Assembly: GCA_903934135.1 (NCBI GenBank)
Contig: CAIZMQ010000057.1
Location: 1 to 54,431, forward strand
Direction: 5' to 3'
Source: an uncultured Verrucomicrobiota bacterium
Lineage (GTDB): Bacteria; Verrucomicrobiota; Verrucomicrobiia; Chthoniobacterales; JACTMZ01
Length of the DNA: 54,431 nt
This document shows, piece after piece, positions 6,902 to 23,017 of the stretch; position 1 is the stretch's first letter, and each line of letters begins with the position of its first letter. A program made the translations under genes and the position numbers. The notes beneath the pieces are model-generated. The model did no database searches and had not been told where the DNA came from. It worked only from the letters and a program-made list of their open reading frames with translations.

Positions 6902-8044
6902 TCAAAACTCCTCGGCGAGCCCGGGCCGTGTGCGGTAGGGGGCAAATGCGGGGTCGGCGATGAGGTAGTTGTAAAGCTCGGGCTTCAGGCGTTCGCGCGC
7001 CTTTTTAAGCAGACGGATGATTGAGGCGTAATCTTCCTGTCGCATGGCGACATAAGCTGCACCGAGGAGACTGGCAGTGTTTTTGTCCGGATCGAGGTTG
7101 GTCGGCAGCAATTCGGTGGGCTTTTGCTCCAGCTCGATAAGCAGGAGGGTTGTATCGACCGTGACAGCGGGATCCACGGGTTGCAGCCTGAGCCGGGCGG
7201 AGGCGAGCATGGCGAGGGCGGCCTCGCGTTCGCCGCGCGCACGCATTTGCATGCCCAACTCCAGCCGCGGGCCCGGGTTGGCTTGGTCGGCGGCAATGGC
7301 TTGGCGAAGGAGGGATTCGACCCTCTCAGCCCGTTCGTCCGTGCTACGTTCCGGACCAAGTCCGCGCTCCAAATTTTCCCATGTCGCGGCGAGCGCGTAA
7401 GCGTCGGAGGCTTTTTCTGCGGAGCGTTGCGCCAGCGCTATTTCCTGCGCGGCTGCTCTGAAATCCCCGCCCTGCAAAGCAGCGAGGGCGGTGAGGTAGG
7501 AGATGGAACTAAGGCGCGGGTTGGCTGCGCGCAGGGTATAGAGAATTTGGAAGGCGGCCGGCATTTTATTTTGCCGGATCAAAGTCAGAGCTTGATTGAT
7601 CGCCTTTTCCTCCGCCTCGCTCGCCGCGACGAAGGCTTCGGTTGAATCGGTAGGAGACGGCTCCGCCCGGGTTTCGCGCCGCATGCCGATGGCCAGTCCA
7701 AGGGCGAAGGAGAACCCGATGGAGAGGATCCAAACGGTGCGCCACAATAGGACACCGCCGCTCTTCTTCGTCGCGGGCGGAGCGCTTCGGGCAGGACCCG
7801 AAGGCCGGCCGGGAGAAGGGGGCGATTTTGGCTCGCGGGCGATCCGCGCGGTGTCTTCGTAGTTGGAAGGAGGCTTCCAGGCTTGCGCGGGCCGCGTGGG
7901 AAGTGAAAGAACGCTCCTTGCTTTCCCCCGGCCGGCCTTTTGGGTCGCCTGCCATCCGGCGGGCCGGATAGGCACCGGCGTGGCCGCGGGGGGCCGGGTC
8001 CGATCCGCACCGGGTTCCGGGGACGGGTGGTTTTCTTCGCTCAT
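6902..8044 (-). CDS. Membrane-anchored protein with a Pro-rich N-terminus, one TM helix and TPR-like helical repeats
   Basis: ATG 8044 (MSEENHPSPEPG...), TM GGVLLWRTVWILSIGFSFALGLAIG, then Ala/Leu-rich repeats such as YLTALAALQGGDFRAAAQEIALAQ. Confidence 0.65.
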   Translation of the reverse strand: MSEENHPSPEPGADRTRPPAATPVPIRPAGWQATQKAGRGKARSVLSLPTRPAQAWKPPSNYEDTARIAREPKSPPSPGRPSGPARSAPPATKKSGGVLLWRTVWILSIGFSFALGLAIGMRRETRAEPSPTDSTEAFVAASEAEEKAINQALTLIRQNKMPAAFQILYTLRAANPRLSSISYLTALAALQGGDFRAAAQEIALAQRSAEKASDAYALAATWENLERGLGPERSTDERAERVESLLRQAIAADQANPGPRLELGMQMRARGEREAALAMLASARLRLQPVDPAVTVDTTLLLIELEQKPTELLPTNLDPDKNTASLLGAAYVAMRQEDYASIIRLLKKARERLKPELYNYLIADPAFAPYRTRPGLAEEF

Positions 8045-8272
8045 CTTAGAAAAGTGGTTGGAGAGTGGTCGTTGAGAGCCGGAGCAAAGCGAAGACAGGC
8101 TTAGGCAATCGAGAGATGGAAAGCCAGCGGCTTGCCGATGCAAGTCGGCTCACCACTTTAAGGGTGAGTCCGGCCAGTGAGGTGACTACCCGTCCACGGA
8201 CCCACATTCATAAACCACGGTTTCAGGATCAAGGCAAAGGTCATTCCATAAAGCCCGACGGTAGTGACATGG

Positions 8273-9148
8273 TCACTTCAGGGCGTCGAGGGCGAGCTCG
8301 TTGACCGAAACGGGCTGCCGCTGCAGGAGGTTGGCAACGTGCGATTCGCGGTTGAGCGCGGCGCGCTGGTTGCGCAAAAGGGCGGCAATTTCGCCTTTCA
8401 CCTCGTCAAGCGGCGCAGGGCCTGCCTCGCGCACATCCTGGAGCAGGATAAGATGAAACCCGGCCCGGCCTTCAACCGGAGCGGAAATCTGACCCTTGGA
8501 GAGTCCGGTCACCGCGGTGCGGATTTCGGGAGTGATTTCGGCCTCGGCCAGCCAACCCAGTTCCCCGCCGCGCGCGGCGGAGGCCGTATCGTTGCTGTTG
8601 GCTTTGGCCAAGGCGGCGAACTCGCCCGGTTTGTCTTTCAAGGTGTCGGCAATTTCCTCCGCCTTTTTGCGTGCCGCATTTTTATCGCCGTCGTCGGCAA
8701 TGAAAATCTGGGAGAGCCGATAGCGGCGCGGGAGTTGCAAACGGTCTTTTTCCGCCGCGTAAACTTTCTCGATTTCTTCCTGGGAAGGATAACCCTCCGG
8801 GACTTTGCCCACTTCGGCGAGGTAACTTTCGACCACATATTGGTCGCGGAGCCGTGCGAGGCCGGCGATGGTTTGCGGCTTTTTGTCCCAACCGGCACCG
8901 GTGGCATCTTGCAAGACGGCGTTGTTGACCAGGACCGAGCGGACGAAGCGGGTCAGGGCGGCTTTGTCCCCGGTCAGCGCGGTGCGGTCGGCGGCCGGGA
9001 GTGCCTCCAAATACGGGCGGACTTCGGAGGCTTTGACTTCGCGCTCGCCGATCTTGGCCACCACGGCGTCGTCGGCTTGGAGGGGGGAACCGGGGCCGAA
9101 GGCGGCCATGGCTAGGGTAAGGAGGGAGAGCATCGGTGGGTTTTTCAT
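8273..9148 (-). CDS. Periplasmic parvulin-type peptidyl-prolyl isomerase (SurA/PrsA-like)
   Basis: Signal peptide MKNPPMLSLLTLAMAAFG. PPIC core RLSQIFI...GGELGWLAEAEITPEIRTAVTGLSKGQISAPVEGRAGFHLILLQD. The start overlaps the upstream gene by 4 nt (ATGA). Confidence 0.85.
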   Translation of the reverse strand: MKNPPMLSLLTLAMAAFGPGSPLQADDAVVAKIGEREVKASEVRPYLEALPAADRTALTGDKAALTRFVRSVLVNNAVLQDATGAGWDKKPQTIAGLARLRDQYVVESYLAEVGKVPEGYPSQEEIEKVYAAEKDRLQLPRRYRLSQIFIADDGDKNAARKKAEEIADTLKDKPGEFAALAKANSNDTASAARGGELGWLAEAEITPEIRTAVTGLSKGQISAPVEGRAGFHLILLQDVREAGPAPLDEVKGEIAALLRNQRAALNRESHVANLLQRQPVSVNELALDALK

Positions 9149-9813
9149 TGGTTGGAAGGGGCAGGTACAGGTGCCGTCGCGGGCGGGGACGGCGGGCGGG
9201 GCAGACCGGTCGCCCGGACCCGCGTTTCGAGATCCTGCATGATGGTCTGGAGAGCGGCGCGGTTCACGCTGATGAAGGGTGCGCGGGACAGCATGGTGCG
9301 GCCGAGGCTGTGCGCGGCGTAGCGGTCGAGGATTTCGTCGGCCAGATTTTTCATCTCGGCCAGCCGGACCTGTTGCTCGGCCACGGCGCGCTCCAGAACG
9401 ATGATGCGTCCCCTCGCTTTGGCCAGCTCGTGCTCCGACTTGCGGGTCCGCTCGGTCAGGGCGCGGTAATCTTTTTCCCACTTGGCCACTTGCGCGCTGA
9501 GCGCGATGGCTTTGTCTTCAACCTGCGTCATGGCGGCACGCAGCTCGGCCGTTTGGTTGGCCGCGTTGTTGCGCTCGTCAACCAGCTGCGCCTGCACTGC
9601 GGCAGTTTCCTTTTTGGCTTTGGCCGCCGCCATTTCCGCCTGCACGGCCGTGCCTTCCATTTCCGCTGTTTTGGCCTGCGCCTCGCGCAATTGGAGCATG
9701 GTATTGCGCAGAGCTTCCCTCAACTGGGCTTCGACGGCACCTTCCTCCTCGGCCGCGAGGGGGAAAGGGGTGGCGACGAGCAGAAGCAGAAATAAGGCAA
9801 TGGGACGCATCAT
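9145..9813 (-). CDS. Secreted coiled-coil protein with a Pro-rich tail
   Basis: Signal peptide MMRPIALFLLLLVATPFPLAA, followed by about 140 aa of heptad-like Ala/Glu/Gln-rich sequence. I recognised no family with confidence (possibly DUF3450-like). Confidence 0.6.
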   Translation of the reverse strand: MMRPIALFLLLLVATPFPLAAEEEGAVEAQLREALRNTMLQLREAQAKTAEMEGTAVQAEMAAAKAKKETAAVQAQLVDERNNAANQTAELRAAMTQVEDKAIALSAQVAKWEKDYRALTERTRKSEHELAKARGRIIVLERAVAEQQVRLAEMKNLADEILDRYAAHSLGRTMLSRAPFISVNRAALQTIMQDLETRVRATGLPRPPSPPATAPVPAPSNQ

Positions 9814-9818
9814 GGAGG

Positions 9819-12035
9819 CTAAAACTTGGCTCCCAGATCAACCTGGAAGATGTTCATGTCATATTGAGGACCGGCAATGCTTTCCGAGCCATACCAGCGG
9901 AGGCCGAGGTAAACCTGCGGGGAGAGGGCGACCCGGCCCGCCAAGGTGAAGCCCTTCATGTTGGTGCCGCCCAGCCCGAAGTCCGAATCGTTGAAGCCGT
10001 CGACCACCGCATCGGAACCGACATAACGGTAGCCGAAGGAAAGCTGCCAGGCGCCCAGCTTGTCGAGTTCGGCATGGCCGGCTTCGATGTCGACCAGCCA
10101 AGCATTGGGGTCGCCTTCGAAAGCGCCGACTTCAGCCGTATCGATATTGGGGTCGTTGGCCACAACCTCTCCGCGATTGTTGACCGCCACCTCGTTGATT
10201 GCCGACGAATTGAAGGCGAGGTTGCTCACGAATTCGCCAATCAGGGAAACCGTGATGGGGTCCCAGCCGTCGTAGCTGAGCTTGCCGGTAAAGGCCAAGT
10301 TTTGGAACGGGGTGGCCAAACCGTAATACTGGTATTGGGGCCACGTGGCAGGATCTTCGCCAGCAGGGATCACAATGTTGCGCAGCGGGCGGTAGGTGTT
10401 GCCCTTTTGCGCGAAGGATGGCCGACTGTTGTCGGTATCGCCGGCATCGTCCTGAGAATATTGGACGTAAGGAGAGGAGAGTTGGCCTTCGATGTTGTAG
10501 AAGGAGTAATAAGCTGCGGCGACTTGCGTGCTCCAATTGCGGGTGATGTTGACCTGGGTGCCCCCCTGGATGGCGAAGAGGTATTTGTCATAACTTGGAT
10601 ACTTCTGTGGTTGATTCGAGGAGAAGTTCAGGTCGGTGTTGAAGACCGGAAAGGCGCCTGCCACGACCGAGGGCAGAAAAACATCATTGTAGTTGTAGGT
10701 CAGACGGACGGCGGCGCCGTCGAAGCCAAGGTCATTGTCAAAAATGATCGGGGTGGAGAAGAAAGGATTGTCGAAGCGGCCAACCCAAAAGGTGGCACCG
10801 GCCGCGCTGGTCGTCTGGCCGGGGCCGACCATGGAGTAGGGAGCGCCCACGGCGAGCAAACCGGTCTCCGGCCTGCCGCCTCCGATGTCATAGCGGATGT
10901 AGGCCCGGTCGAGCCAGATGGCGTATTTGCTGAATTGGCCGCCTTGGCCTTGATTGGCCAAGCCCATCGACTGGTTGGCCGTGACCGGGGAGTTGTTGTC
11001 GCCCGTGGCCATGCGGAGGCCCGCGCTGAAGTTGTCGCCCAGTTCGATGCCTGTGCCGAGGCGGACGAGCATGCGGTAGCGGTTGCGGTTCTGATCGGTG
11101 TTCCATTGCGGGGCAAATTCACTCCCATTGATCTGGAACGGATTGCCCGTGTTGATCGCATTGAAGTTCGGGAAAGCGCCGGTATCGTCGTTGCCGGAAG
11201 GATAAAGATCTGCTTCGTAGCGGAAGCGGATTTCACCCTCCGGCTTGAGCTGCGCGAGGAGAGCGGGGAGTCCCGGCGGCGCCCGCTCGGGACCGCCGAT
11301 GGAGACACCTCCCGCGGCCAGTTCCCGGCGGATGTCGGCCACCAACTGTTCGCGCACGGGGGCGGGGATGTGGCTGACGCGCAGGTCCGCCTCCATTTCA
11401 CGCCGTGAGGCGTCGACCGCGCTCATACCGGTTTGTTCGGCCAGGGCCTGGTCGGTCATGGTCTGGACGGCGGCAATTTGCGCGATGGCAAACATGTCCG
11501 ACTCGTTTTGCACCTTCTGGGTCTCGGCTTCGGCCTGGGCTTGGGTGATCATGCCGCGGGCATCACCCGCGGTGAGCACACCACGCTCAACCAGCTTGTT
11601 GATCAAGTTGATCACCACATTGCCGGTCGGCGTGGTGGCGATATTCTGGCCGGCATCCGGTGGTTCCACCGGGGCTTCCGCGGCGGAAGCCGCATTATTC
11701 CCCGCCGTGGTCGCCGTGGCGGCCAAGGGAGCGGTTTCCTCCTTGGCATAAGGCTCGACAGTCCAAGTGGGAAGCTCCGGCTCGACAACCGGGGCCACGG
11801 GGGAGGTTTCGACGGGCACCGCGGCAATTTCGACCGCGGTCGCCTCCAAGATTTCGGCCGAAGGCCCCCCTTCGATGGCCGGACTCTCCGTCGCCGGGAC
11901 GGTGGGGGCCGAGGGAAGTACCGCCACCTCGGCCGGTGGGACGGCTTCGATCGGGCCCGCCGGTTGCGCGGCGCGGCACCAAGATCCGGCAAGGAAGAGC
12001 GCGGCCAGAATGGTCTGGAAAACGCGGCGGTTCAT
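9819..12035 (-). CDS. Outer-membrane beta-barrel, porin-like, with a long Pro/Ala-rich and helical N-terminal extension
   Basis: Signal peptide MNRRVFQTILAALFLAGSWCRA. About 250 aa of low-complexity and helical N-terminus (LINKLVERGVLTAGDARGMI). The C-terminal roughly 480 aa have alternating beta-strand patterns and a terminal ...QVDLGAKF. No plug or TonB-box-like N-terminus. Confidence 0.7.
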   Translation of the reverse strand: MNRRVFQTILAALFLAGSWCRAAQPAGPIEAVPPAEVAVLPSAPTVPATESPAIEGGPSAEILEATAVEIAAVPVETSPVAPVVEPELPTWTVEPYAKEETAPLAATATTAGNNAASAAEAPVEPPDAGQNIATTPTGNVVINLINKLVERGVLTAGDARGMITQAQAEAETQKVQNESDMFAIAQIAAVQTMTDQALAEQTGMSAVDASRREMEADLRVSHIPAPVREQLVADIRRELAAGGVSIGGPERAPPGLPALLAQLKPEGEIRFRYEADLYPSGNDDTGAFPNFNAINTGNPFQINGSEFAPQWNTDQNRNRYRMLVRLGTGIELGDNFSAGLRMATGDNNSPVTANQSMGLANQGQGGQFSKYAIWLDRAYIRYDIGGGRPETGLLAVGAPYSMVGPGQTTSAAGATFWVGRFDNPFFSTPIIFDNDLGFDGAAVRLTYNYNDVFLPSVVAGAFPVFNTDLNFSSNQPQKYPSYDKYLFAIQGGTQVNITRNWSTQVAAAYYSFYNIEGQLSSPYVQYSQDDAGDTDNSRPSFAQKGNTYRPLRNIVIPAGEDPATWPQYQYYGLATPFQNLAFTGKLSYDGWDPITVSLIGEFVSNLAFNSSAINEVAVNNRGEVVANDPNIDTAEVGAFEGDPNAWLVDIEAGHAELDKLGAWQLSFGYRYVGSDAVVDGFNDSDFGLGGTNMKGFTLAGRVALSPQVYLGLRWYGSESIAGPQYDMNIFQVDLGAKF

Positions 12036-12742
12036 GGTCGCGAGGTATTGATCCGCATGACGATCGGCATGGGCATATCATCCGGCGGCGGATCGGGCAA
12101 TTGGGCGCCATTGAGAATTTCAGATTCGAGGGCACGGTCAATGGCCGGATCCCCCGAGGATCCTTCGATGGAAGCACGGGTTACCCGCCCCGTGCGATCG
12201 ACCCAGATGCGCGCTTTGACCGTCATGCGCGAGGTGCGCGTCAGTTTATGATTGCGCACGGCGGCCGATACCGCGTTCTGCACCCTCCCGGCATACCATC
12301 CGAACCGCGTGCCGGCTCCGCCACCTTGACCGCGGCTGCCGATCATGCCGCCGCCGCCTTTTCCGACCAGGCCGAAGCCATCGGGTGGGCCGTCCCCTTG
12401 GATATTGGAGCCCATCGGCTCGGGGGCATCGGGCGCTGCCTCCGGTTCGGGCGGTGGGTCCGGCGCAGCCTCTTCGACAAACTCGGGCGCGTCGGGCGGA
12501 GGCTCGGCCTGATCGGGCGGTGGTGGCGGCGGGGTGGGTGCCGGGGGCGGGGGCGGCGGCAGCACCGGCATGACATTGACCACACTGGTTGTCCTCTTTT
12601 TCGGTTTGCTTTCACCGCCGAGGAAAAAGAAAGCCCCTGCGGCCACGGCCAGGAATGCGGCCCCGAGGCCGACGATCAGGAAGGCGGGCGACCTTTTGTT
12701 TCCGGTCTCGGGGGAGCCGGAGGTTGGAGGCAAGCTGGCCAT
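12032..12742 (-). CDS. tonB: TonB-family energy transducer
   Basis: N-terminal TM (AFLIVGLGAAFLAVAAGAFFF), a PPPPPPPAPTPPPPPPDQAEPPPDAPE spacer, and C-terminal VKARIWVDRTGRVTRASIEGSSGDPAIDRAL, which is TonB_C-like. Confidence 0.85.
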   Translation of the reverse strand: MASLPPTSGSPETGNKRSPAFLIVGLGAAFLAVAAGAFFFLGGESKPKKRTTSVVNVMPVLPPPPPPAPTPPPPPPDQAEPPPDAPEFVEEAAPDPPPEPEAAPDAPEPMGSNIQGDGPPDGFGLVGKGGGGMIGSRGQGGGAGTRFGWYAGRVQNAVSAAVRNHKLTRTSRMTVKARIWVDRTGRVTRASIEGSSGDPAIDRALESEILNGAQLPDPPPDDMPMPIVMRINTSRP

Positions 12743-12745
12743 GGT

Positions 12746-13153
12746 CTATTGATCCGGGGCCACCGTGGCCAGACCGACTTGAGTGATGCCGAGGCGCCCG
12801 CAAACGTCGATCACGTTCATGACGCCCTCATACTGGGTTTGGCGGTCGCCGCGCACCACCACGGGAAATTCCGGAACGCTCGCTTTGTGCGCTTTGAGCC
12901 GCGCCTCCAGCTCGGCCAAGGTCACGGGCACGGTATCGAGGGCGATCTGGCCTTGGTTGTTCACCGTAATGGCCCGGCTTTTTGGTCCGCTCAGGTCGGC
13001 GGGCTTGCTCGAGGATTTCGGCAGATCAACCTTCATGCCCTGCACTCCGGCCGTGGTCATGATGATAAAAATGAGGAGAAGCACGAGGTAGAGGTCCACC
13101 ATCGGCGTGACGTTGATGTCGTCGTAACTCTTGTCGTCTCCTCCGGCGTCCAT
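12746..13153 (-). CDS. exbD: ExbD/TolR biopolymer transport protein
   Basis: DINVTPMVDLYLVLLLIFIIMTT TM motif and a conserved periplasmic domain; 135 aa. Confidence 0.9.
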   Translation of the reverse strand: MDAGGDDKSYDDINVTPMVDLYLVLLLIFIIMTTAGVQGMKVDLPKSSSKPADLSGPKSRAITVNNQGQIALDTVPVTLAELEARLKAHKASVPEFPVVVRGDRQTQYEGVMNVIDVCGRLGITQVGLATVAPDQ

Positions 13154-13156
13154 GGG

Positions 13157-15091
13157 TCAGTTCAGGTTGGCCGCGGTGGGCTCGTTGGAGGGCGGAGCGA
13201 AGCGGGGGGGCAGGCCCTCTCCGGGCGGCGGATAAGCTTCGGCCATTTTGGTGACAAATTCGTCGATGAAGACTTGCATCGAAGAGATCACGTCTTTGAT
13301 CCGCGAGCTGAGGACGCTGTACATGAAGAGGGCCGGGATGGCCACAAAGAGGCCCACCGTGGTGGCCAGCAGGGCGCTGGCAATACCCGGCGCGATCGAG
13401 TTGACATCCACCTCGCCCGACTTGGCGATGATGGCGAAGGTGATCATGACGCCAACCACCGTGCCGAGCAGGCCGACGTAAGGGCCGCCGGCGATGCTTG
13501 TGGTGAGAATAACCAGACCTTTGTTCAGCCGCTGCCGCTCCCGGACCAAGCCGGCGTCGAGCGAGGCGCGGATGGCCTGAATGGAACGCACAGACAACCC
13601 GCGGTGGCGGTCCGGGCCGGAGATGCGGTGCCGGATCTCCTTAACCCCGAGGTGATACAAGTGGTAGCAGGGAGAATCGAGCATTCCCTGGATGCCTGCT
13701 TTTTGCTTGGTCGCTCCCTTGGCCTCCATGGCCTCCATCCGCAGGTTGGTCAGGGAGTCCGGGTCATCGGCATCCAGCACCGTCAAGTCGCCGGAGACTT
13801 CACCCCACTGGCGGAGGAACTCGCTGTCGCCTTTCATCAAGGCGCGCAAGCGGATGAATTTGGCCACCGCAACCGACCATCCCATGATCATCATGATCAC
13901 GCAGACCACCACGGCGATCCATCCGTCGAACATCATGTTGTTGGCGATGTCGCCGAAGAGCATGACGTGTTCGAGCGCGCCGCCATGACCCCCGCCGGCA
14001 TCGCCGCCTTCCAACTCGGCGAAGCTCAAGACCTTGCTGGCCATCTCGTTGCCCGACTGGTTGATGCTCATGAGGCGCAAGTTCGGCGCGGAAAGGGCCG
14101 CGCTATAGACCTGCAACTCGTCGAATTCCCCGAGGAACCGTCCTTCGCTCGAAACTGCCGGATCGGGCCCGCCAAGGAACATCGGACCATCACCGGCCGG
14201 CAATGGTGCGGCCAGCGCACCGACCTCGCGCCCATCGAGGTAGAGGGTCATTTTCCCGCTGTTCGCGGTGACCGCGATTTGGCGCCACGTCGCGGCGGAC
14301 AACGTTTCCGCGGCCACCGCGCGGGGTTGGCCGTCGACTTCGAGGAAAGGTGCGCCGCCGGCGGCGAGGCCCAAGCGGAAATTTCCGGCGCCCGGTCGGG
14401 TGAAAAGAATAGCCTCGTTTGCCGTGGCGATCGGCTTGACCCAGAAAATGAGCGTGAGGCTGCCGTCCGCACTCCACGCATTAGCCGCCGAACCGGGAAT
14501 GGAAACCGGGTCGCGTCCGACCAGGCGCAAGCCGTTGGCCACGATGGTGCCTTCGGAGATGCTTCCGGCGCTTCCGGCATGCGAGGCGTTGGCCGTGGCA
14601 TCTTGGGGCGGGGTGCCTCGTTCGTTGAGGTGGTAAACGAAGGCCGCGTTTTCGGGGTAGGTTTTGGCCTGGTCGGGAGCGCCCTCGGCCTCGGGCGCGG
14701 CATTGCCGTAGTAGAGGAAAAATTCAGCCGCCCCCTTTTCTCCGCCGGCCGGGACTCTGACCCAAGCGAAGCCCTCCGCCATGAGCGGATCGAATTTTTC
14801 GAGGTGGAAGGGCAGGACTTGTCCATCGGCGGCGACGAAGCGGAGGTCGCTGCCGTCCGGCTGTACGAGGTCGAAAGGCAGGTTGCCCGGATGCAGGCGC
14901 ACGAGCACCACGGTTTCGCCCGTCTCGCCCCCGATGTCGGCTCCCTCGGCCGCGGGGTCGAGGGTGAACTTGGTCCGCCCGGTCCACTCTTCTTTCCACC
15001 AATCGGGCGCAGCGGCCGAGACCGTTGCGGCGAGGGTCAACCCGGCGAGCAGGAGAGCGAGGAAGCGGGTAGTCAAGGAGTACGATTTCAT
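13157..15091 (-). CDS. MotA/TolQ/ExbB proton channel fused to an N-terminal exported DUF2341-like plus LamG (concanavalin-like) region
   Basis: Signal peptide MKSYSLTTRFLALLLAGLTLAATVSA. DUF2341-like W..EEWTGRTKFTLD...DLRFVAADGQVLPFHLEKFD...AWVRVP...FFLYYGN. LamG-like LTLIFWVKP...MTLYLDGREVG...FDELQVYSAAL. C-terminal ExbB core GGPYVGLLGTVVGVMITF...IAPGIASALLATTVGLFVAIPALFMY. Confidence 0.85.
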   Translation of the reverse strand: MKSYSLTTRFLALLLAGLTLAATVSAAAPDWWKEEWTGRTKFTLDPAAEGADIGGETGETVVLVRLHPGNLPFDLVQPDGSDLRFVAADGQVLPFHLEKFDPLMAEGFAWVRVPAGGEKGAAEFFLYYGNAAPEAEGAPDQAKTYPENAAFVYHLNERGTPPQDATANASHAGSAGSISEGTIVANGLRLVGRDPVSIPGSAANAWSADGSLTLIFWVKPIATANEAILFTRPGAGNFRLGLAAGGAPFLEVDGQPRAVAAETLSAATWRQIAVTANSGKMTLYLDGREVGALAAPLPAGDGPMFLGGPDPAVSSEGRFLGEFDELQVYSAALSAPNLRLMSINQSGNEMASKVLSFAELEGGDAGGGHGGALEHVMLFGDIANNMMFDGWIAVVVCVIMMIMGWSVAVAKFIRLRALMKGDSEFLRQWGEVSGDLTVLDADDPDSLTNLRMEAMEAKGATKQKAGIQGMLDSPCYHLYHLGVKEIRHRISGPDRHRGLSVRSIQAIRASLDAGLVRERQRLNKGLVILTTSIAGGPYVGLLGTVVGVMITFAIIAKSGEVDVNSIAPGIASALLATTVGLFVAIPALFMYSVLSSRIKDVISSMQVFIDEFVTKMAEAYPPPGEGLPPRFAPPSNEPTAANLN

Positions 15092-15092
15092 C

Positions 15093-16763
15093 TTAAAATT
15101 CCGCCCAAGCGCGGAAAACGAGCATTGGACTGCCGGCCGGTCGGTAGCTATCCGCCTCGGTCGAGCCTTGCGAGATTTGCGGAATTCCGACGTAGACCGC
15201 ACTATTGAGCCACTCCATGAATGTGGCCACCGCCCCGAAGCCGACGCTGAGCAGGTTGAAGCTGGTGGTCTGTTCGGGCAACGGGTCATTGATGAAGACG
15301 GAACCGGCATCCAGGAAGCCGAGCAGGCGGACTTCGTGCCGGTCGTTTTTGATCCACCAGCGCAGCAGCGAAGGGGTGCGGACTTCCAATGTGCCGGCGA
15401 TGGCGCTGTCTCCCACCGCTTGGGATTCGAGGTAGCCGCGCACCGTGGTGAGGCCGCCGACCGAAAATTGCTCGCTGTCGACCAAGGCGTTGTCGGTGGC
15501 CTGGCCTTGGAGCAGCGCTTTGACTTGGAAGTCCTGCCAGAGGTCGTGCTCGTAGCTGGTCAGGCCGCGGAAGTAAAAATAGTTGCCGTTGGCCGCGTAG
15601 CGCCGGTTGTCGAATTCCACCTCCCCGCTGCCCATCCCGCGGAAATGCCAGTTGAAGGACCCGTCGAATTGGAAGCGGTAATCCTTGCCCATCCAGAAAC
15701 CGTTGTAGCTGAGGAGGAAGGGGTAGTAGGTGACCGGCGAGGAATCGACCAACACGTTGTTGACGGACAGCGACTGCTCGAAATTCTTGTAGTCCATCCC
15801 GAAGGTGAGGTTGTGGAACATGCCGGTGTGGCGGGTGGGCAACTCGGCGATGAGGCGTCCGCCATAGATCTCGCCGTTGCCGGTCGAAGCGCTGCCTCCG
15901 AGGGTCGAGACGTCGCTGTTTTGACGGATGGCCTGCGCCATGAGGGAGAGCCACTCCACGCGCGGTACCGGGGCGAGGTAGTAACCGGAGTAGACGAGGG
16001 CATCGTCGGCGTCCTGCGGTGCGACTTGGAATGCCGCGCCGATGGTGTGGCCGAGCTGCCAGAGATTGTCGTAGCGCAAAGAGGCGTCGAGGCGCAGTGG
16101 CGTGGTGTTGGCGCTGTAGCGGTTGTTCAGCTCCACGCTGCCGTGGAGGGGAAAGGAATCTTCCACCACCAACTCCACGTCAACCGAGCCCGGCATGGCG
16201 CCGGGTTTGAATTCCGGTGTGACCCGCAGATCGGCGCGCCGGTTGAGGCGGATAACATCCTTCTCCACGTCGCGGAAGTTCGGGATGGACCCCACGGCGA
16301 GGGAGGGAGCGAGGCGTTTGATCCTTTCAATGTCGTGGTATTTCGATCCCCGGACGGTGAGCCGACCAACGGGCATTTCCTGCACGCTGAGGACAATGAC
16401 CCCGCTGGTCGGATCTTGCGGCGGAACCTCGACGACCACCGTCTGGTAACCGGCACGATGGTATCTTTGCTCGAGCGAGGCGCGGGCCAATTCGACATCC
16501 TCCGCCGTGCGCTCCGGGCCGAGATAAGCATAGACGGCATAATCGACCTGGTCGCGCGGCAGGTGGCGCGATCCGATCACGCGGTATTCGCGAATGTGGA
16601 AAGATGGAGGCGGCAAGTCGGAGGCCGTGCTTTCACCCTCCGCGTCCGTGGTCGGCACGGCCCGCGCGTCCTCGCGGGGCGCGGCCAGAAATACGGTCAG
16701 GGCCGCTGCGAGTAAGCAGGCGCGCACCCAGACAAAGCGGACCGATATGGCGGGCAAGGACAT
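15093..16763 (-). CDS. ShlB/FhaC/HecB-type two-partner-secretion (TpsB) outer-membrane transporter, with no TpsA partner in the window
   Basis: POTRA-like FHIREYRVIGSRHLPRDQVDYAVYAYLGPERTAEDVELARASLEQRYHRAGYQTVVVEVPPQD..GVIVLSVQEMPVGRLTV. Barrel with GGLTTVRGY and GFLDAGSV motifs and terminal ...FRAWAEF. I chose ATG 16763 because the upstream part of the ORF overlaps pstB. Confidence 0.85.
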   Translation of the reverse strand: MSLPAISVRFVWVRACLLAAALTVFLAAPREDARAVPTTDAEGESTASDLPPPSFHIREYRVIGSRHLPRDQVDYAVYAYLGPERTAEDVELARASLEQRYHRAGYQTVVVEVPPQDPTSGVIVLSVQEMPVGRLTVRGSKYHDIERIKRLAPSLAVGSIPNFRDVEKDVIRLNRRADLRVTPEFKPGAMPGSVDVELVVEDSFPLHGSVELNNRYSANTTPLRLDASLRYDNLWQLGHTIGAAFQVAPQDADDALVYSGYYLAPVPRVEWLSLMAQAIRQNSDVSTLGGSASTGNGEIYGGRLIAELPTRHTGMFHNLTFGMDYKNFEQSLSVNNVLVDSSPVTYYPFLLSYNGFWMGKDYRFQFDGSFNWHFRGMGSGEVEFDNRRYAANGNYFYFRGLTSYEHDLWQDFQVKALLQGQATDNALVDSEQFSVGGLTTVRGYLESQAVGDSAIAGTLEVRTPSLLRWWIKNDRHEVRLLGFLDAGSVFINDPLPEQTTSFNLLSVGFGAVATFMEWLNSAVYVGIPQISQGSTEADSYRPAGSPMLVFRAWAEF

Positions 16764-16811: not shown

Positions 16812-16829
16812 TGTGAACTTTCCGTCACA
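16812..16829. promoter_or_regulatory. Perfect palindrome TGTGA-N8-TCACA in the 92-nt gap between pstB and the TpsB/Ton operon
   Basis: Sequence is aaTGTGAactttccgTCACAtg, 49-66 nt upstream of the TpsB-like start codon. It is identical in half-sites and spacing to 933-950. Confidence 0.5.
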
Positions 16830-16855: not shown

Positions 16856-17671
16856 TCAGCCGAAGCGGCCGGTGATGTAGTCCTCGGTGCGTTTTTCCGA
16901 GGGGCTGGTGAAAATTTTCGCCGTGGTGCCGAATTCCACCAACTTGCCAAGGTAGAAGAAGCCGGTGTGGTCGGAGCAGCGGGTGGCCTGCTGCATGTTG
17001 TGGGTCACGATGACAATGGTGAACTCTTTCTTCAGCTCGCTGATCAGTTGTTCGACCCGGGCCGTGGCGATGGGATCCAGGGCGGAGCAAGGCTCGTCCA
17101 TGAGCAGAACCTTGGGCCGGTTGGCAATGGCGCGCGCAATGCAGAGGCGCTGCATTTGCCCGCCGGAAAGCCCGAGGGCGCTCTCGTGCAAGCGGTCTTT
17201 GACCTCGTCCCACAAGGCGGCGCCGCGCAGGCTGCGCTCGGCCGCCTCGTCGAGTTGGGTGCGATCGTGCAGTCCGCAGATACGCAGGCTGTAGACCACG
17301 TTTTCATAAATCGACTTGGCGAAGGGATTCGACCGTTGGAAAACCATGCCGACCAATCTTCGCAAGGCGATGACTTCGAGGGTCGGATCCCAAAGGCTGC
17401 GTCCGGCCAGCGTAATTTCCCCGGTGTGCCGCACACCGTCGATCAATTCGTTCATCCGGTTGAAATTGCGGAGGAGGGTCGTTTTCCCACAGCCGGATGG
17501 TCCGATGAACGCGGTGACCTGACGCTCGGGAATATCGAGGACAACGTCGTGCAGGGCCTGGTTTTTACCGTAGAAGAAGTTGAAGTCGCGCACCGAGATG
17601 ATGGGCCGCCCCCCGGCAGGCGGGGTTGCCTCCTGGGTGGTGCGTGGTACGGAAGTGGTCGCGTCGGGCAT
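16856..17671 (-). CDS. pstB: Phosphate ABC transporter ATP-binding protein
   Basis: [58 protein letters not shown] and [11 protein letters not shown]. Confidence 0.97.
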
Positions 17672-17674
17672 GGG

Positions 17675-18565
17675 TCAGTGTTTTTTGCTGAAAACGAGTT
17701 GAGCGGTCACGTTGGTCGCGGTGACAAGGAGAACCAGCACGAGGGAAGCGGTCCAAGCCATTTTCACCTGATATTCGAAGGGAACGGTGGAAAAATTGTA
17801 AATGAGCACGGCCAGCGATGCCGTCGGCTCCATCAGTGAGGACATCCAGAACTGGCTGAAAAGCGCGGTGAAGACAAGCGGTGCGGTTTCGCCGGCCGCG
17901 CGGGCCACGGCAAGCATCACTCCGGTCATGATGGCCGGCATGGCCTCCGGGAGGACGATGCGGGTGATGGTCTGGAAGCGTGTCGCACCGAGGCCGTAGG
18001 AAGCCTCGCGGTAGGCGAGTTGCACGCCGAGCAGGGCCTGCTCGGAGGTGAGCAAGATGGTCGGCAGCATGAGTACGCCGAGGGCGACACCGCCGGCCAG
18101 GGCGGAAAATTTTCCGGTGGCCAAAACAATCGCGGCGAAGGCGAAGACGCCGCAGATGATGGACGGGATACCGGTGAGGAGTTTGGCCGTGAAGCGGGTG
18201 ATGGTTGCGAGGCGCCCGGCTGGCTCGTATTCGCAGATGTAGATCGCGGCGAGGATGCCGGGCGGCCCGGACAGGGCCAGTCCGATCCCGACCATGAGGA
18301 ACGTGCCGACCACCGCGTTGCCGAAGCCGCCTCCGGTCATTCCGGCCGCGGGCGGCAACTGGGTGAAAATCGACCAGTCAAGCAAAGGCAGGCCGTTCTT
18401 CATCACCAGATACAGGATGGAAGCGAGGGGAACGAGCGCCGCGAAGGATAGCGCGATGCACAGGCCGGTGAGGAGACGGTTGCCCAAAGAGCGACCGATC
18501 AGTTTGGTCGACTCGATGCCGTCTTCTTTGAAAAAGTCCTCGGCGTGGGTAAGAGGATTATCCAT
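17675..18565 (-). CDS. pstA: Phosphate ABC transporter permease PstA
   Basis: Polytopic protein with the loop YREASYGLGATRFQTITRIVLPEAMPAIMTG. Positioned between pstC and pstB. Confidence 0.93.
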   Translation of the reverse strand: MDNPLTHAEDFFKEDGIESTKLIGRSLGNRLLTGLCIALSFAALVPLASILYLVMKNGLPLLDWSIFTQLPPAAGMTGGGFGNAVVGTFLMVGIGLALSGPPGILAAIYICEYEPAGRLATITRFTAKLLTGIPSIICGVFAFAAIVLATGKFSALAGGVALGVLMLPTILLTSEQALLGVQLAYREASYGLGATRFQTITRIVLPEAMPAIMTGVMLAVARAAGETAPLVFTALFSQFWMSSLMEPTASLAVLIYNFSTVPFEYQVKMAWTASLVLVLLVTATNVTAQLVFSKKH

Positions 18566-18570
18566 ACACG

Positions 18571-19527
18571 TCAGCGGATACCCGCCGTTCTTCGTTCGGT
18601 GTAACGCAGCACGGCTTCGCCGGCGAAATTGACTGCGAGGGTCAGGGCGACGAGCACCAGTGCGGCATACATCAAAGCGGCGACCTGCATGCCCTCGGCC
18701 TCGCCGAATTGGTTGGCCAGCAGGCTGGCCAGGGTGCCGGAAGGGGCAAAAAGCGACCAGGAAAGTCGTGAACTGTTCCCGATGAGCATGGCCACGGCCA
18801 TCGTTTCACCCATGGCCCGTCCCAGCGCGAGGATGGTTGCCGCGACCACCCCCGGTGCGGCGGTGGGCAGGATCACCCCGAGGATGGTCTCCCAGCGGGT
18901 GGCGCCGAGGGCGTAAGCGCCCTCGCGCAAAGTCCGCGGCACGGCGACAAGCGATGCGCGTGAGATCGCGGTGATGGTGGGCAGCACCATGAGGGCGAGG
19001 ACTACTCCGGCGGTGAGCAGGGAATTGCCGTAAGCGGGACCGGTCAGGAAAGGAAGATGGCCGAAGCGCTCCGTGACCCAAGTGCCGAGGGATTGGATGA
19101 GGGGAACCACCACAAAGATGCCCCACAGTCCGTAGACCACGCTGGGGATGGCGGCGAGAAGCTCGACGACAAAACGGACAAAGTCACGAGCGTGCCGGGG
19201 CAGGAAATCTTCGCTCAAAAAGATGGCAATGGCCAACCCCGGCGGGAAAGCCAGCAGCAAGGCGATGATCGCGGTGGCTACGGTTCCGACAAGGAAGGGC
19301 AGCACACCGTAGCGGTCGCGGTTGGGCTGCCACTGCGCGCCGGTCAGAAAACCAAGGCCGTATTCCTCCAGGGCCGGTTTGGCTTCCTGGAAAACCTCCC
19401 AGAAAATCCAGCCGAGCACGAAGACCGAGGAGGCTGCTGCGACGGCGGTGAACCAACGGAAAAAATCCGGAAGCCTGCGCGCCACGCTGCCATGGATGCC
19501 GCCCGAGCCGGTCTTGTCGGTCGTCAT
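18571..19527 (-). CDS. pstC: Phosphate ABC transporter permease PstC
   Basis: Polytopic protein with the loop LREGAYALGATRWETILGVILPTAAPGVVAA. Positioned after pstS. Confidence 0.93.
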   Translation of the reverse strand: MTTDKTGSGGIHGSVARRLPDFFRWFTAVAAASSVFVLGWIFWEVFQEAKPALEEYGLGFLTGAQWQPNRDRYGVLPFLVGTVATAIIALLLAFPPGLAIAIFLSEDFLPRHARDFVRFVVELLAAIPSVVYGLWGIFVVVPLIQSLGTWVTERFGHLPFLTGPAYGNSLLTAGVVLALMVLPTITAISRASLVAVPRTLREGAYALGATRWETILGVILPTAAPGVVAATILALGRAMGETMAVAMLIGNSSRLSWSLFAPSGTLASLLANQFGEAEGMQVAALMYAALVLVALTLAVNFAGEAVLRYTERRTAGIR

Positions 19528-19543
19528 GGGGAGACGGATAGGC

Positions 19544-20545
19544 TTAATCGATGGTGGAAAGCGCCGCGTTGGCCTTGGCCACGACGGACTCGGGCAGCGG
19601 AATGTAGCCGAGATCCACCGCGAAGGACTGGCCCTCGGTCAGTCCGTAAGTGACGAAGTCCTTGAGCGCTTTGAGCTTCGCGGCATTGTCATAGGTTTTG
19701 TAAAGCAAGAGCCAGGTGAACGAAGTAATAGGATAGCCGTCAGGTGCCGCGGTGTCGACCGGCCAGGCGCGGAGATTTTCCGGCAACTCGACCGAGGCCA
19801 GCGCGGCGGCGCCGCTGAGTGGAGTGGGGACAATGAAGTTGCCCGACTTGTTTTCGACCGAAGCGACCGGCAATTTATTCTGTTCGGCGTAGCCGAATTC
19901 GACATAACCGATGGAGCCGGGAGTCTGTTTGACCAGTGCGGTGACCCCCTCGTTGCCTTTGCCGCCTACCCCGACCGGGAAAGTCACCGATTTGTCATAA
20001 CCCACCTCTTCATCGAATTCAGGGCTGATCGCGGCCAGATGTTGGGTGAAGACATACGTTGTACCGCTTCCGTCCGAGCGGTAGGCCACCGTGATGGGTC
20101 GTGCGGGGAGCGGCAGGTCGGGGTTGGCCGCGACAATGGCCGGATCGTTCCACTTGGTGATTGTGCCCAAAAAAATACCGGCCAGCGCGGCGCGGGACAG
20201 CCTGAGTCCGGTCACGCCTTCGAGATTGTAGGCCAATACCACGCTGCCTGCGGTGACCGGAACCATCACCGCCCCGCGTGGCGATTTGGCAATTTCGGCA
20301 TCGGTTATGGCTGCATCGCTTGCCCCGAAATCGACCACCCCTTGGAGGAAGTTTTTCACCCCGGCCCCGCTGCCGACTGACTGGTAGTTCACCTCGATGG
20401 CCGGAACCTGTTTGTTGTATTCGACCGCCCAGCGCTGGTAGAGCGGCGCGGGGAAGGTGGCGCCCGCACCAGATAGTTGCTGGGCATGGAGTGGCGCGGT
20501 GAAACCGGCTGCCAAGATGGCAAAATGAAACAATGACTTCTTCAT
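19544..20545 (-). CDS. pstS: Phosphate-binding protein PstS
   Basis: ATG 20545 gives MKKSLFHFAILAAGFTAPLHA, then SGAGATFPAPLYQRWAVEYN, ASDAAITD and YRSDGSGTTYVFTQHL. Confidence 0.95.
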   Translation of the reverse strand: MKKSLFHFAILAAGFTAPLHAQQLSGAGATFPAPLYQRWAVEYNKQVPAIEVNYQSVGSGAGVKNFLQGVVDFGASDAAITDAEIAKSPRGAVMVPVTAGSVVLAYNLEGVTGLRLSRAALAGIFLGTITKWNDPAIVAANPDLPLPARPITVAYRSDGSGTTYVFTQHLAAISPEFDEEVGYDKSVTFPVGVGGKGNEGVTALVKQTPGSIGYVEFGYAEQNKLPVASVENKSGNFIVPTPLSGAAALASVELPENLRAWPVDTAAPDGYPITSFTWLLLYKTYDNAAKLKALKDFVTYGLTEGQSFAVDLGYIPLPESVVAKANAALSTID

Positions 20546-20709
20546 GAGCGAAAGATTGGGGGTAAAGTCTCGCCGTTCGGCGGGCGCGAAAGAAGCGAAA
20601 AGCATGGCCGTGGCGGATTTGTCACATTTGGAGCCGGGTTTTTCCGAGACTTTAGGAAGTTTGTTCCACGGCTTGCGGCCGGATCCCCGCAAGCCTAGTC
20701 TTTATTGCG

Positions 20710-21402
20710 ATGGATCTGACCACGGCCAAACATATTTTGGGCGATTTTGACGACGCCCTGCGCACGATGCGTGACACGGTGTTGATGATGGCTTCACTGA
20801 CCGAGCGCCTGCTGGCCTCCGCCAGTGAAAGTCTTTCCGCCCGCAGCTTCGAAGCTTGCGAGAGGGTCATTGCGGACGATGCGGAAATTGACATGTTGGA
20901 GAAGTCGGTCGACGAGGCCGGTGTTGCTATTTTGGTCCGGTTCCAACCGTTGGCCAACGACCTGCGTGAGGTCGTTGCCGCGATGAAGGTCAGCACCAAC
21001 CTCGAACGCGTTGGTGATCAGGCCGTGGGGATCGCCCGCCGTGCCCGCCGCCTCAACGAATCCCTTGCCCTGCCCGAGACAGACCGCTTGGTCAAAATGT
21101 GTCGCGTCGCGGCGGACATTTTTCGCGACAGCATCCGGAGTTACGCCGACCGCGACGAGGGGTTGGCGCGCGGACTAAAGGAGCGCGACCGCGAGCTCGA
21201 TGCCATGCACCACGCCTACATCGATCAGTTGACCGCGCGGATGGCTGAGGACACCGGTCGCATTCGCGATTATCTCGATCTCGTGCTCATGGCGCGTAAT
21301 CTCGAACGCGTTGGTGACCACGCCACAAACATCGCCGAAGACGCCGTCTTCGCCGCATCGGCCGAAGATATTCGCCACACCACGCCACCCCCGGGAGCCT
21401 GA
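20710..21402 (+). CDS. phoU: Phosphate signalling complex protein PhoU
   Basis: Two PhoU repeats with NLERVGDQAVGIARRA and NLERVGDHATNIAEDA. Divergent from pstS. Confidence 0.93.
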   Translation: MDLTTAKHILGDFDDALRTMRDTVLMMASLTERLLASASESLSARSFEACERVIADDAEIDMLEKSVDEAGVAILVRFQPLANDLREVVAAMKVSTNLERVGDQAVGIARRARRLNESLALPETDRLVKMCRVAADIFRDSIRSYADRDEGLARGLKERDRELDAMHHAYIDQLTARMAEDTGRIRDYLDLVLMARNLERVGDHATNIAEDAVFAASAEDIRHTTPPPGA

Positions 21403-21408
21403 GTGCCC

Positions 21409-22047
21409 TTAAAGTCCGCGCGGGGAAGCGGAAGGTGTGCCCGCGAACCTTTCTGGTGGCGGCGCGGGAGCTTCAGACGCGGCTGGCGTCGCAGACGGCA
21501 CCAGCTTGGGCAGCCGTTCGGCCAACGGTTGTTGGAAAATATCGACCCGTGCGCCGACGCCCACGCGGTCGAACAAGGCAATGATATCCCTCGAGCGCAT
21601 GCGGATGCAGCCGTAGCTGACGGGGATGCCGATATTGCGCTCCTCCGGTGTACCGTGGATGTAAATGAAGCGGCCGAAGCTGTTCCCGTTGTGACCCTCT
21701 TTGCCGCCGAGCCAGAGGATGCGGGTGACGATGGGATCGCGTCCCGGCGCATCAACCGGCAGCACCTCGCCGGTGAAACGGCGCGACTTGAAAACCGCGC
21801 CCGGCGGCAAACCGTGGCCGATTTTTTTCAGCACGCGGTGCTTGCCGAGTGGGGTGCCGTAGCTGCCCGGCCGCGAACTCAGCCCGAATTTCGAGGTCGA
21901 GATGGGAAAGGTCGCCACGGGCTGACCTTGATCGGTGACGAGCATCTTCTGGTCGGTCACGCTGATGTGCATGACATGACGGTTGTCGAGCTGCGCACAG
22001 CCGGTAAAAAGCAGGGGGAGGAAAAAGAAAATCGGACGGATCCTCAT
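21409..22047 (-). CDS. L,D-transpeptidase (YkuD domain) lipoprotein
   Basis: Lipobox LLFTGC. Catalytic region IYIHGTPEERNIGIPVSYGCIRMRSRD. Confidence 0.88.
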   Translation of the reverse strand: MRIRPIFFFLPLLFTGCAQLDNRHVMHISVTDQKMLVTDQGQPVATFPISTSKFGLSSRPGSYGTPLGKHRVLKKIGHGLPPGAVFKSRRFTGEVLPVDAPGRDPIVTRILWLGGKEGHNGNSFGRFIYIHGTPEERNIGIPVSYGCIRMRSRDIIALFDRVGVGARVDIFQQPLAERLPKLVPSATPAASEAPAPPPERFAGTPSASPRGL

Positions 22048-22298
22048 AGAGAGACGATAACTTAGCACAGCGCTCTGATCGGAGCGAGCGACCCAGAGTC
22101 TCCTGATATGAGAACAGTATCCCGAAACGGCGCGGCAAAAAGTTTTTTGAACGGAGGACCGTTGGCGTGGTCAGAAATATCGGTTTGGTTTGCGCCAAGA
22201 GCCGCCGGGCCGGTCAGTTTTCTTGTTTTCTGATCGGAATCACCGGCGGCTCACTTTTTTATCTTGAGCAGAGCGCCCCGCTTCCTAGCGTCCACGAC

Positions 22299-23009
22299 GT
22301 GAATCCCGCCCAGACCAAGCCGGCTACAGTTCTGGTTATCGAGGACGAGGCCGACATGTTGGAGTTGGTCCGTTACCATATGGACAAAGCGGGGCTCCGC
22401 GTTCTTCTTGCGCGCGATGGCCGGCAGGGACTGGAGAAAGCCCGGGCTGAATCCCCGGATGTCATCGTGCTCGACCTCATGTTACCGGCCATGAGCGGAG
22501 AGGATGTGTGCCGGGAGCTAAAGGCGGGCGATGCCACCACCGCCATTCCGGTCATCATGCTCACGGCCAAGGCCCAACCGGAAGAACGGATCGCCGGCCT
22601 CGAACTCGGGGCGGACGACTACGTGGCCAAGCCTTTCAGTCCGCGCGAGCTTGTCCTTCGTGTCCAAGGCATCCTGCGCCGTCAGCGCGTACCGGGCGCG
22701 GGGGATACGCTGGCTTTCGGACCTTTCGAACTCGATCGGGGTATCTTTGAGGTGCGCCTCGAAGGCGAGCGTCTCGACCTGACGGCCATCGAGTTCAAAC
22801 TCCTTGCCACGCTGATGGAAAAGCGCGGCGCACCGATGGCGCGGGTCGATCTGCTGCGCGATGTCTGGGGCTACCGTAATCTGATCGACAGTCGCACGGT
22901 CGATACTCACATGCGGCGGTTGCGAGCCAAACTTGGATGCCATGCCGACTGCCTCGCCACGGTGCGCGGCGAAGGTTATTGCTTCAACGCGGGAAGGACG
23001 GAACCTTGA
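22299..23009 (+). CDS. phoB: OmpR-family response regulator, PhoB-like
   Basis: VLVIEDEADM, VIVLDLMLPAMSG and winged-helix RTVDTHMRRLRAKL. The start is uncertain (I preferred GTG 22299; the ORF opens at GTG 22167). Confidence 0.88.
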   Translation: MNPAQTKPATVLVIEDEADMLELVRYHMDKAGLRVLLARDGRQGLEKARAESPDVIVLDLMLPAMSGEDVCRELKAGDATTAIPVIMLTAKAQPEERIAGLELGADDYVAKPFSPRELVLRVQGILRRQRVPGAGDTLAFGPFELDRGIFEVRLEGERLDLTAIEFKLLATLMEKRGAPMARVDLLRDVWGYRNLIDSRTVDTHMRRLRAKLGCHADCLATVRGEGYCFNAGRTEP

Positions 23010-23017
23010 GCTGGTCG

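Follow-up and report, generated by a model that had tools for sequence, protein, structure and literature searches.

A seven-gene envelope block on the minus strand

The 54,431-nt stretch analysed here (hereafter the window) comes from an uncultured Verrucomicrobiota bacterium and carries, at 8273-16763, seven tightly packed minus-strand open reading frames (ORFs) for envelope proteins. The names given to homologs of its proteins point to the order Chthoniobacterales. An earlier note on this DNA had proposed the seven ORFs as one operon for an undescribed Ton-powered outer-membrane system. The exact ORFs are present, with gaps of 1, 3, 3, -4, 5 and -4 nt, and Pfam recovered the domain content that had been listed for them. 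The first gene (15093-16763; 556 aa with a signal peptide) encodes TpsB, an Omp85 transporter of the FhaC/ShlB type used in two-partner secretion (TPS), with POTRA_2 (1.6e-13) and ShlB (8.2e-17) domains. It is followed by genes for an ExbB/TolQ-like stator subunit containing DUF2341, Laminin_G_3 and MotA_ExbB (13157-15091; 644 aa), an ExbD/TolR-like subunit (12746-13153; 135 aa; ExbD, 2.8e-28) and a TonB/TolA-like protein (12032-12742; 236 aa; TonB_2, 1.3e-11). The remaining three genes encode a Porin_5 outer-membrane barrel (9819-12035; 738 aa; PF16930, 1.7e-157, 525 bits), a secreted coiled-coil protein without a Pfam family (9145-9813; 222 aa) and a periplasmic parvulin-type peptidyl-prolyl isomerase (PPIase) or chaperone (8273-9148; 291 aa; Rotamase, Rotamase_2 and Rotamase_3). 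Signal-peptide-like N-termini could be read from the sequences of TpsB, the ExbB-like protein, the barrel, the coiled-coil protein and the parvulin. None of the seven products is named at equivalog level by NCBIfam.

As the earlier note had stated, the window encodes neither a TpsA exoprotein nor a plug-containing receptor. Searches by tblastn with the TpsA N-termini of relatives and with custom TpsA hidden Markov models (HMMs) gave zero matches, and every ORF longer than 480 aa has another assignment or belongs to no family; all of these absences hold for the 54 kb of the window. The block is functional here despite the lack of an adjacent TpsA gene. Compared with the closest relative on a long contig (L003, 89% identity), the ratio of nonsynonymous to synonymous substitution rates (dN/dS) is 0.09 for tpsB, 0.13 for the exbB-like gene, 0.04 for exbD, 0.08 for tonB, 0.20 for the barrel gene, 0.12 for the coiled-coil gene and 0.08 for the parvulin gene, with pstB (0.08) as the yardstick. 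These values indicate purifying selection on all seven genes.

Five reference loci were used for comparison: Luteolibacter sp. Populi (L001), two other Verrucomicrobiota (L002 and L004), a Methylosinus plasmid (L005) and a Klebsiella plasmid (L006). TpsB of the window shares 37-52% identity with the TpsB proteins of all five (BLASTP). Its POTRA_2 and ShlB domains score above the Pfam cut-offs, the second POTRA domain not being separately resolved. Both domains are shared with classical TPS systems (FhaB/FhaC, ShlA/ShlB), and the secreted partner found in relatives of the block has the N-terminal TPS domain; unlike the block, classical systems come without a dedicated proton motor, a second barrel or a coiled-coil protein. 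The earlier proposal that tonB is translationally coupled to the barrel gene stands for the window and L003, where the ATGA overlap is retained, but the two genes lie 11-60 nt apart in the five reference loci.

The AlphaFold2 model of the ExbB-like protein, with a predicted local distance difference test (pLDDT) of 80, places two beta-sandwich domains ahead of a TolQ-like helical transmembrane (TM) part. Foldseek matched the protein to the lectin-like domains of trans-sialidase, clostridial neurotoxins and arabinanase, and to TolQ (9kpz). The exported DUF2341 and LamG arm is present as described, at about 350 aa (residues ~28-375) rather than ~430. A survey of MotA/ExbB relatives published in 2025 counts the DUF2341 appendages of ExbB-like proteins among those not yet characterised. 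The best NCBIfam score of the protein is to TolQ, below the cut-off, and Ser572 occupies the position of TolQ E173 and ExbB E176. This serine is invariant in 68 verrucomicrobial homologs and is replaced by alanine in Methylosinus and Aquabacterium.

The ExbD-like subunit keeps the transmembrane Asp (MVDL) and scores 93.5 bits with the TolR model against 67 bits with ExbD, both under the cut-off. The TonB-like protein consists of an N-terminal TM helix, a Pro-rich spacer and a TonB_2 C-terminal domain; it passes TIGR01352 tonB_Cterm (40.1 bits; cut-off 27.1) and also matches TolA. Its TM helix lacks the His found in classical TonB (His20). The MotA/ExbB-family subunit, the ExbD TM Asp and the TonB-family C-terminal domain are shared with classical Ton and HxuABC systems. 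In contrast, classical ExbB has Glu176 and classical TonB a TM His where the block has Ser and no His, and the lectin-like ExbB arm is an addition of the block. The classical partner is a 22-strand receptor containing a plug; the window has no such receptor, and its barrel is modelled as porin-like. With Ser in place of Glu in the stator and no His in the TonB-like helix, the motor may differ in its coupling from the Ton and Tol motors of classical type.

For the Porin_5 barrel, AlphaFold2 was run on 71 sequences and structure matches were sought with Foldseek against the PDB. The window protein is modelled with an overall pLDDT of 64, most barrel strands lying between 70 and 90. The model comprises a signal peptide, a disordered Pro/Ala-rich linker of ~110 aa (19-134), four helices (136-241) and a barrel (263-738) of ~16 long strands, as counted in the model, with no plug. 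The family counts 722 clusters at 50% identity (E below 1e-10), and outside the barrel its conservation is highest at the start of the helical segment. The top PDB matches were OmpM1, OprB, OmpF/OmpK36, DcaP and AlgE; no sequence relative of the protein was found in the PDB. DcaP of Acinetobacter and OmpM1 of Veillonella carry an N-terminal periplasmic stalk, and helices precede the barrel in our model as well. Neither protein has a detectable sequence relationship to the window barrel, whose gene sits, unlike theirs, in an operon with a motor and a TPS transporter.

The coiled-coil protein belongs to a family with an N-terminal coiled coil and a C-terminal motif, LdRY..GLGdAl.AREPF, in a conservation profile of 87 sequences. 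BLASTP linked it to the gene at the same position in the three verrucomicrobial reference loci (E 1e-20 to 1e-24), in Klebsiella (6e-8; 28% identity) and in Methylosinus (7e-6; 22% identity). Pfam scans of 16 members and a PDB profile search for a family or solved relative returned only coiled-coil noise. The parvulin has its top NCBIfam scores with PpiD/SurA/PrsA-type models and shares 35-38% identity with its counterparts in L001, L004, L005 and L006. Pfam, the models and Foldseek together bear out the combination that had been singled out earlier: one unit encodes a TpsB, a Ton/Tol-like motor whose periplasmic arm is lectin-like, a barrel without a plug, a parvulin and a secreted coiled-coil protein.

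Counterparts in other bacteria and the missing exoprotein

A scan of species-representative genomes with the Porin_5 alignment matched at least 599 stretches, at least 561 of them encoding a Porin_5 relative. The best 80 of these relatives (L007-L086; hereafter the verrucomicrobial loci) were annotated with HMMs built from the window and the five reference loci. The seven-gene order is common to these 80 verrucomicrobial species genomes and to Alpha-, Beta- and Gammaproteobacteria. In all 46 related loci with room to show it, the gene for the long ExbB comes directly after tpsB, so the DUF2341-ExbB gene is obligately linked to TpsB. Every one of the 80 verrucomicrobial loci has the coiled-coil gene behind Porin_5, and a PpiC-type isomerase closes the block in 54, many loci being truncated. 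This conservation of gene order greatly exceeds what chance would give, and the genes form one conserved unit.

The view that the TpsB is an orphan and the machine self-contained did not survive this comparison. A TpsA gene is present in 43 of the 60 related loci (72%) that extend at least 2.5 kb downstream. The exoprotein is a giant of 3,618-3,968 aa, with an N-terminal TPS domain and DUF3739 near the C-terminus. In Luteolibacter sp. Populi, Verrucomicrobiota strain sgz303538 and a 775-kb contig, a giant TPS/DUF3739 gene follows or flanks the seven genes, and a Chthoniobacterales contig has two such giants. Since TpsA adjoins the block in most relatives, the TpsB of the window is no true orphan, only locally without a partner, and the system is not self-contained. 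The locus of L003 is laid out like the window, with phoR-phoB, ykuD, phoU, pstSCAB, the seven genes and a TPR-like ORF, and no TpsA. In a metagenome set anchored on the TPS domain, the block lies immediately upstream of, or divergent from, 38 of 60 PdtA-type TpsA genes and is not beside the other 22. With about one-third of these genes encoded elsewhere, a distant partner is plausible for the window too. An exact-match query with the window TpsB returned no record, and this metagenome scan with the TPS-domain alignment did not list L003's long contig among its matches.

All seven window products match positional counterparts in Luteolibacter, the two other Verrucomicrobiota, and the Methylosinus and Klebsiella plasmids. 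Identity is 37-60% for six proteins in Methylosinus and 25-49% in Klebsiella, with lower values for the coiled-coil protein in both. A tblastn search with Porin_5 against plasmids returned 12 proteobacterial records. The Methylosinus plasmid encodes, in order, VreA-like, extracytoplasmic function (ECF) sigma and FecR proteins, TpsB, long ExbB, ExbD, TonB, a putative porin, a hypothetical protein, a PPIase, YbjN and a giant haemagglutinin-family protein. On the Klebsiella plasmid the order is TpsA, TpsB, long ExbB, ExbD, TonB, porin, hypothetical protein, YbjN, PPIase, hypothetical protein and LysR. This plasmid, pKqq_SB98_1 of Klebsiella quasipneumoniae, is a conjugative IncFIB plasmid on which the complete PdtAB-type locus lies beside insertion sequence elements and an ars operon. 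The presence of the locus from TpsA to LysR on a conjugative plasmid indicates that the whole system is mobile.

Pseudomonas brassicacearum encodes TpsB, a DUF2341+LamG+ExbB protein, ExbD, TonB_2, Porin_5, a 215-aa protein, YbjN, a PPIase and LysR, with no TpsA within 5 kb upstream of the block. The same core occurs in Burkholderia, Variovorax, Cupriavidus and Aquabacterium. YbjN was present in all proteobacterial loci checked except Aquabacterium, and no ORF in the window or in the verrucomicrobial loci matched an HMM of the YbjN sequences from Methylosinus and Klebsiella. Genes for VreA-like, ECF sigma and FecR proteins flank the block in Methylosinus, Burkholderia and Cupriavidus; no ECF sigma or FecR gene lies beside it in any of the 80 verrucomicrobial loci. 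Matches of a VreA-like HMM in verrucomicrobial loci fell on the TonB-like genes and were set aside as cross-matches. Separately, a Methylomagnum ishizawai plasmid (L088, 13887-17738) carries a Porin_5 gene without a motor; phoU is two genes away, and a TpsB/TpsA pair lies at a distance of ~7 kb. A dedicated motor is thus not a constant companion of the barrel, and the setting is once more one of phosphate genes.

The architecture, put forward in the earlier note as a candidate undescribed system, is already in the literature. The PA0690-PA0701 region of Pseudomonas aeruginosa contains pdtA, phdA, pdtB, exbB2, exbD2, tonB4, PA0696, PA0697, PA0698 (YbjN), PA0699 (PpiC) and a LysR regulator, with PA0696 annotated as a "putative outer membrane porin" (PMC7035377, PMC2729926). 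By position, PdtB corresponds to TpsB of the window, ExbB2 to the long ExbB, TonB4 to the TonB-like protein, PA0696 to the barrel, PA0697 to the coiled-coil protein and PA0699 to the parvulin. One transcript driven by PphdA runs from phdA through PA0701, pdtA has its own promoter, and PhoB binds both (PMC4971064). Phosphate starvation induces the block by way of PhoB and sigma-VreI (PMC4971064, PMC7035377, PMC2729926), and PdtA, PA0696 and PA0698 rank near the top of the proteins enriched when phosphate is limiting (PMC9769906). VreA-like, ECF sigma and FecR genes flank the block here too (PMC2729926). PdtA and PdtB form a functional TPS pair, the sole part studied functionally (PMC7035377); the authors describe the Ton part as 'still uncharacterized' and PA0696-PA0700 as 'function still unknown'. 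Literature searches on DUF2341+ExbB, PF16930, tonB4/PA0695-0697, TPS+ExbB+TonB and recent PdtA work found no functional study of the motor part within the searchable papers.

Judged by gene order and homology, the window block is very probably the verrucomicrobial counterpart of pdtB-exbB2-exbD2-tonB4-PA0696-PA0697-PA0699. The two share the order TpsB, long ExbB, ExbD, TonB-like protein, putative porin, secreted helical protein and PpiC-type isomerase, as well as a single transcription unit apart from the TpsA gene and a phosphate-starvation context. The DUF2341+LamG+ExbB and Porin_5 families likewise recur in the version of the genus Pseudomonas. The differences are lineage-specific. PA0698 (YbjN), LysR and VreA/VreI/VreR belong to the Pseudomonas version and occur in no verrucomicrobial locus, whereas the window lineage has lost the adjacency to TpsA and carries the block directly behind pstSCAB. 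The Porin_5 of the window also has its Pro/Ala-rich linker in addition to what the Pseudomonas version contains.

Phosphate genes, a candidate operator and other neighbours

Directly upstream of tpsB, outside the unit, Pfam identified pstB, pstA, pstC and pstS on the minus strand and, further out, a divergent phoU on the plus strand, a YkuD transpeptidase gene, and genes for a PhoB-like regulator and a PhoR-like kinase on the plus strand (16856-24334). The spacer between pstB and tpsB is 92 nt and contains an inverted repeat, TGTGAACTTTCCGTCACA (16812-16829), 49 nt upstream of the tpsB start. This candidate operator fits the consensus TGTNAC-N6-GTNACA and is also found in the pstB-tpsB spacer of L003 and L009. 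More broadly, 23 of 54 loci have a match to TGTGA-N8-TCACA, with at most 1 mismatch, at 50-135 nt before tpsB, compared with 0.8% of random 320-nt windows; TGTNAC-N6-GTNACA is the consensus after refinement. These data support the view that the unit has its own promoter and operator in front of tpsB.

A Pho box upstream of tpsB, as in the P. aeruginosa comparison, was considered and rejected. Because the conserved element is an inverted repeat rather than the 11-bp-spaced direct repeats of PhoB-type sites, no PhoB site can be claimed. Promoter and terminator scans stayed at background level and were uninformative; as no terminator-like site separates pstB from tpsB, read-through from pst is also possible. 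Expression is probably tied to phosphate limitation: experiments show this for P. aeruginosa, and in the window the position behind pstSCAB and beside phoU-phoBR suggests it. A third copy of the motif in the phoU-pstS spacer, before pstS (20609-20626), has 2 mismatches, which is within background.

A second copy of the inverted repeat (933-950) precedes a plus-strand pair that is possibly co-regulated, a PEP-CTERM protein gene (999-1973) and a 417-aa ORF without a Pfam family (2098-3348). Homologs of both lie directly upstream of tpsB in L004, L025, L077 and L078, and the two proteins may be further lineage-specific parts of the system. On the other side of the block, 129 nt after the parvulin gene, a minus-strand 413-aa ORF (6902-8143) with faint TPR_19/ANAPC3 matches is a possible eighth gene. 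Its homologs follow the parvulin gene in L003, L007, L008, L013, L025, L035 and L091 and lie between parvulin and TpsA in L044, L066 and L091. The protein is poorly conserved, with 38% identity to that of L003.

Three other features of the window were recorded. A gene for polyphosphate kinase 2 (PPK2; 29034-30272, minus strand) lies ~5 kb past the phoR-like kinase gene and adds to the phosphate theme. A single minus-strand ORF of 751 aa (31228-33483) joins PurD (GARS_N/A/C) to PurM (AIRS, AIRS_C) in a purine operon with purN, purL and purF; such PurD-PurM fusions are usual in eukaryotes and uncommon in bacteria. A bactofilin-domain protein (48633-49556, minus strand), unrelated to the block, has weak, below-threshold matches to DZR and HypA zinc-ribbon-like domains at residues 102-134.

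A proposed helper for a giant exoprotein

We read the block as one half of a PdtA-type two-partner (type Vb) system, comprising the transporter and accessory proteins, that also supplies a helper mechanism for the exoprotein, and we put the probability of this joint reading at about 0.6. TpsB would export a giant TpsA encoded outside the window in the same genome. The ExbB-like and ExbD-like subunits would form a proton motor with lectin-like periplasmic arms, from which the Pro-rich linker of the TonB-like protein would reach the outer membrane. There, the Porin_5 barrel, through its periplasmic helical extension, and the coiled-coil protein would join the motor in a trans-envelope complex. 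Such a complex could use the proton-motive force to aid the passage, holding or surface anchoring of a ~400-kDa exoprotein. The parvulin would hold the exoprotein unfolded in the periplasm, as Par27 reportedly does for filamentous haemagglutinin in Bordetella, and YbjN might be a further chaperone in Proteobacteria. Taken by itself, the trans-envelope helper mechanism is a tentative proposal that we rate at somewhat below even odds. A bolder version is more doubtful still: the Ton/Tol-like motor might be a dedicated, phylum-spanning component of one TPS class, providing the energy or mechanical force with which giant PdtA-type exoproteins are exported, retained or retracted via TpsB or next to it, with Porin_5 and the PA0697-like protein as adaptors.

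Several points weigh against this reading. The prevailing view is that TPS transport needs no external energy, and no experiment in any organism ties the motor to PdtA secretion. A TonB box in TpsB, which would have suggested a TonB-gated transporter, was looked for and rejected, as the segment ahead of POTRA1 is not conserved across 60 sequences. The conserved N-terminal segment of Porin_5 is likewise modelled as helix rather than as a strand-forming box. The substrate of this TpsB is unseen, since neither the 54 kb nor the surroundings of the block in its closest relatives, L003/L013, L007 and L008, contain a TpsA. True pst adjacency is confined to the window, L003/L013 and L009; the other 'PstB' matches were generic ABC ATPases, and adjacency across the loci in general was discarded. 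The link to strain PAO1 of P. aeruginosa runs through P. brassicacearum and published annotation. Finally, a zebrafish assay revealed no phenotype for PAO1 strains with a single transposon insertion in PA0695 or PA0696 (PMC2729926).

The strongest competitor, though unlikely, is nutrient import resembling HxuABC, in which a surface TpsA captures a phosphorus substrate, Porin_5 serves as a TonB-gated channel and the motor powers uptake. HxuA/HxuB/HxuC of Haemophilus provides the precedent of a TPS pair with a TonB-dependent outer-membrane protein. The phosphate setting also fits: the Pseudomonas block belongs to the Pho regulon beside secreted phosphatases, the window block stands directly behind pstSCAB, the Methylomagnum Porin_5 without a motor is near phoU, and Luteolibacter has a Porin_O_P gene and an ABC importer upstream. 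However, the pst adjacency is clade-specific, and Porin_5 has neither a plug domain nor a recognisable TonB box. No periplasmic binding protein, hydrolase or inner-membrane importer is conserved across the 80 verrucomicrobial and 9 proteobacterial loci, and the parvulin, together with the chaperone-like YbjN of Proteobacteria, suits export better.

It is improbable that the motor instead forms a Tol-Pal-like envelope module acting under stress, or energises VreA/sigma-VreI signalling, with the TPS pair a merely co-regulated neighbour. In sequence and structure the motor does match TolQ and TolR best, ahead of the ExbB and ExbD models, and the TonB-like protein matches TolA as well. The Tol-Pal unit also ends with a periplasmic coiled-coil/TPR protein, CpoB, and in Methylosinus, Burkholderia, Cupriavidus and P. 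aeruginosa the flanks of the block carry VreA-like, ECF sigma and FecR genes. Yet the block contains no homolog of TolB or Pal, all Tol scores fall far under the equivalog cut-offs, and it is linked to TPS rather than to cell division genes. The absence of ECF sigma and FecR genes from all 80 verrucomicrobial loci rules signalling out as the core role, and the invariable linkage to TpsB (46 of 46) speaks for a function tied directly to TPS.

Least likely, and in our view very improbable, is a self-contained Ton-powered machine with a truly orphan TpsB: purifying selection in the absence of a TpsA from the window and its nearest relatives, and the P. brassicacearum block without one within 5 kb upstream, would fit it, but TpsA adjoins the block in 72% of related loci as well as in proteobacterial versions, lies off-block in about one-third of the metagenomic cases, which makes a distant partner plausible here, and the architecture is on record in P. 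aeruginosa.

The reading of the block as part of a PdtA-type system places it in a locus that is already known, of which the TPS half is characterised and the motor half named yet unexplained, and to which the window adds a verrucomicrobial member. The association of motor and TPS has been visible in P. aeruginosa since 2009, and PAO1 mutants and anti-PdtA antisera exist. The comparison separates a core of six to seven genes from lineage-specific additions, namely YbjN, LysR, VreAIR and pst adjacency. Its spread over Verrucomicrobiota and three proteobacterial classes, including a conjugative Klebsiella plasmid, indicates that the block is old or highly mobile. Textbooks present TPS as the simplest of secretion pathways, with two proteins and no source of energy at the outer membrane. 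In contrast, one large class of TPS loci is firmly bound to a chaperone, a proton motor, a coiled-coil protein and a second barrel. Should the bolder role suggested for the motor prove correct, the system would count as the first energised example of type Vb secretion.

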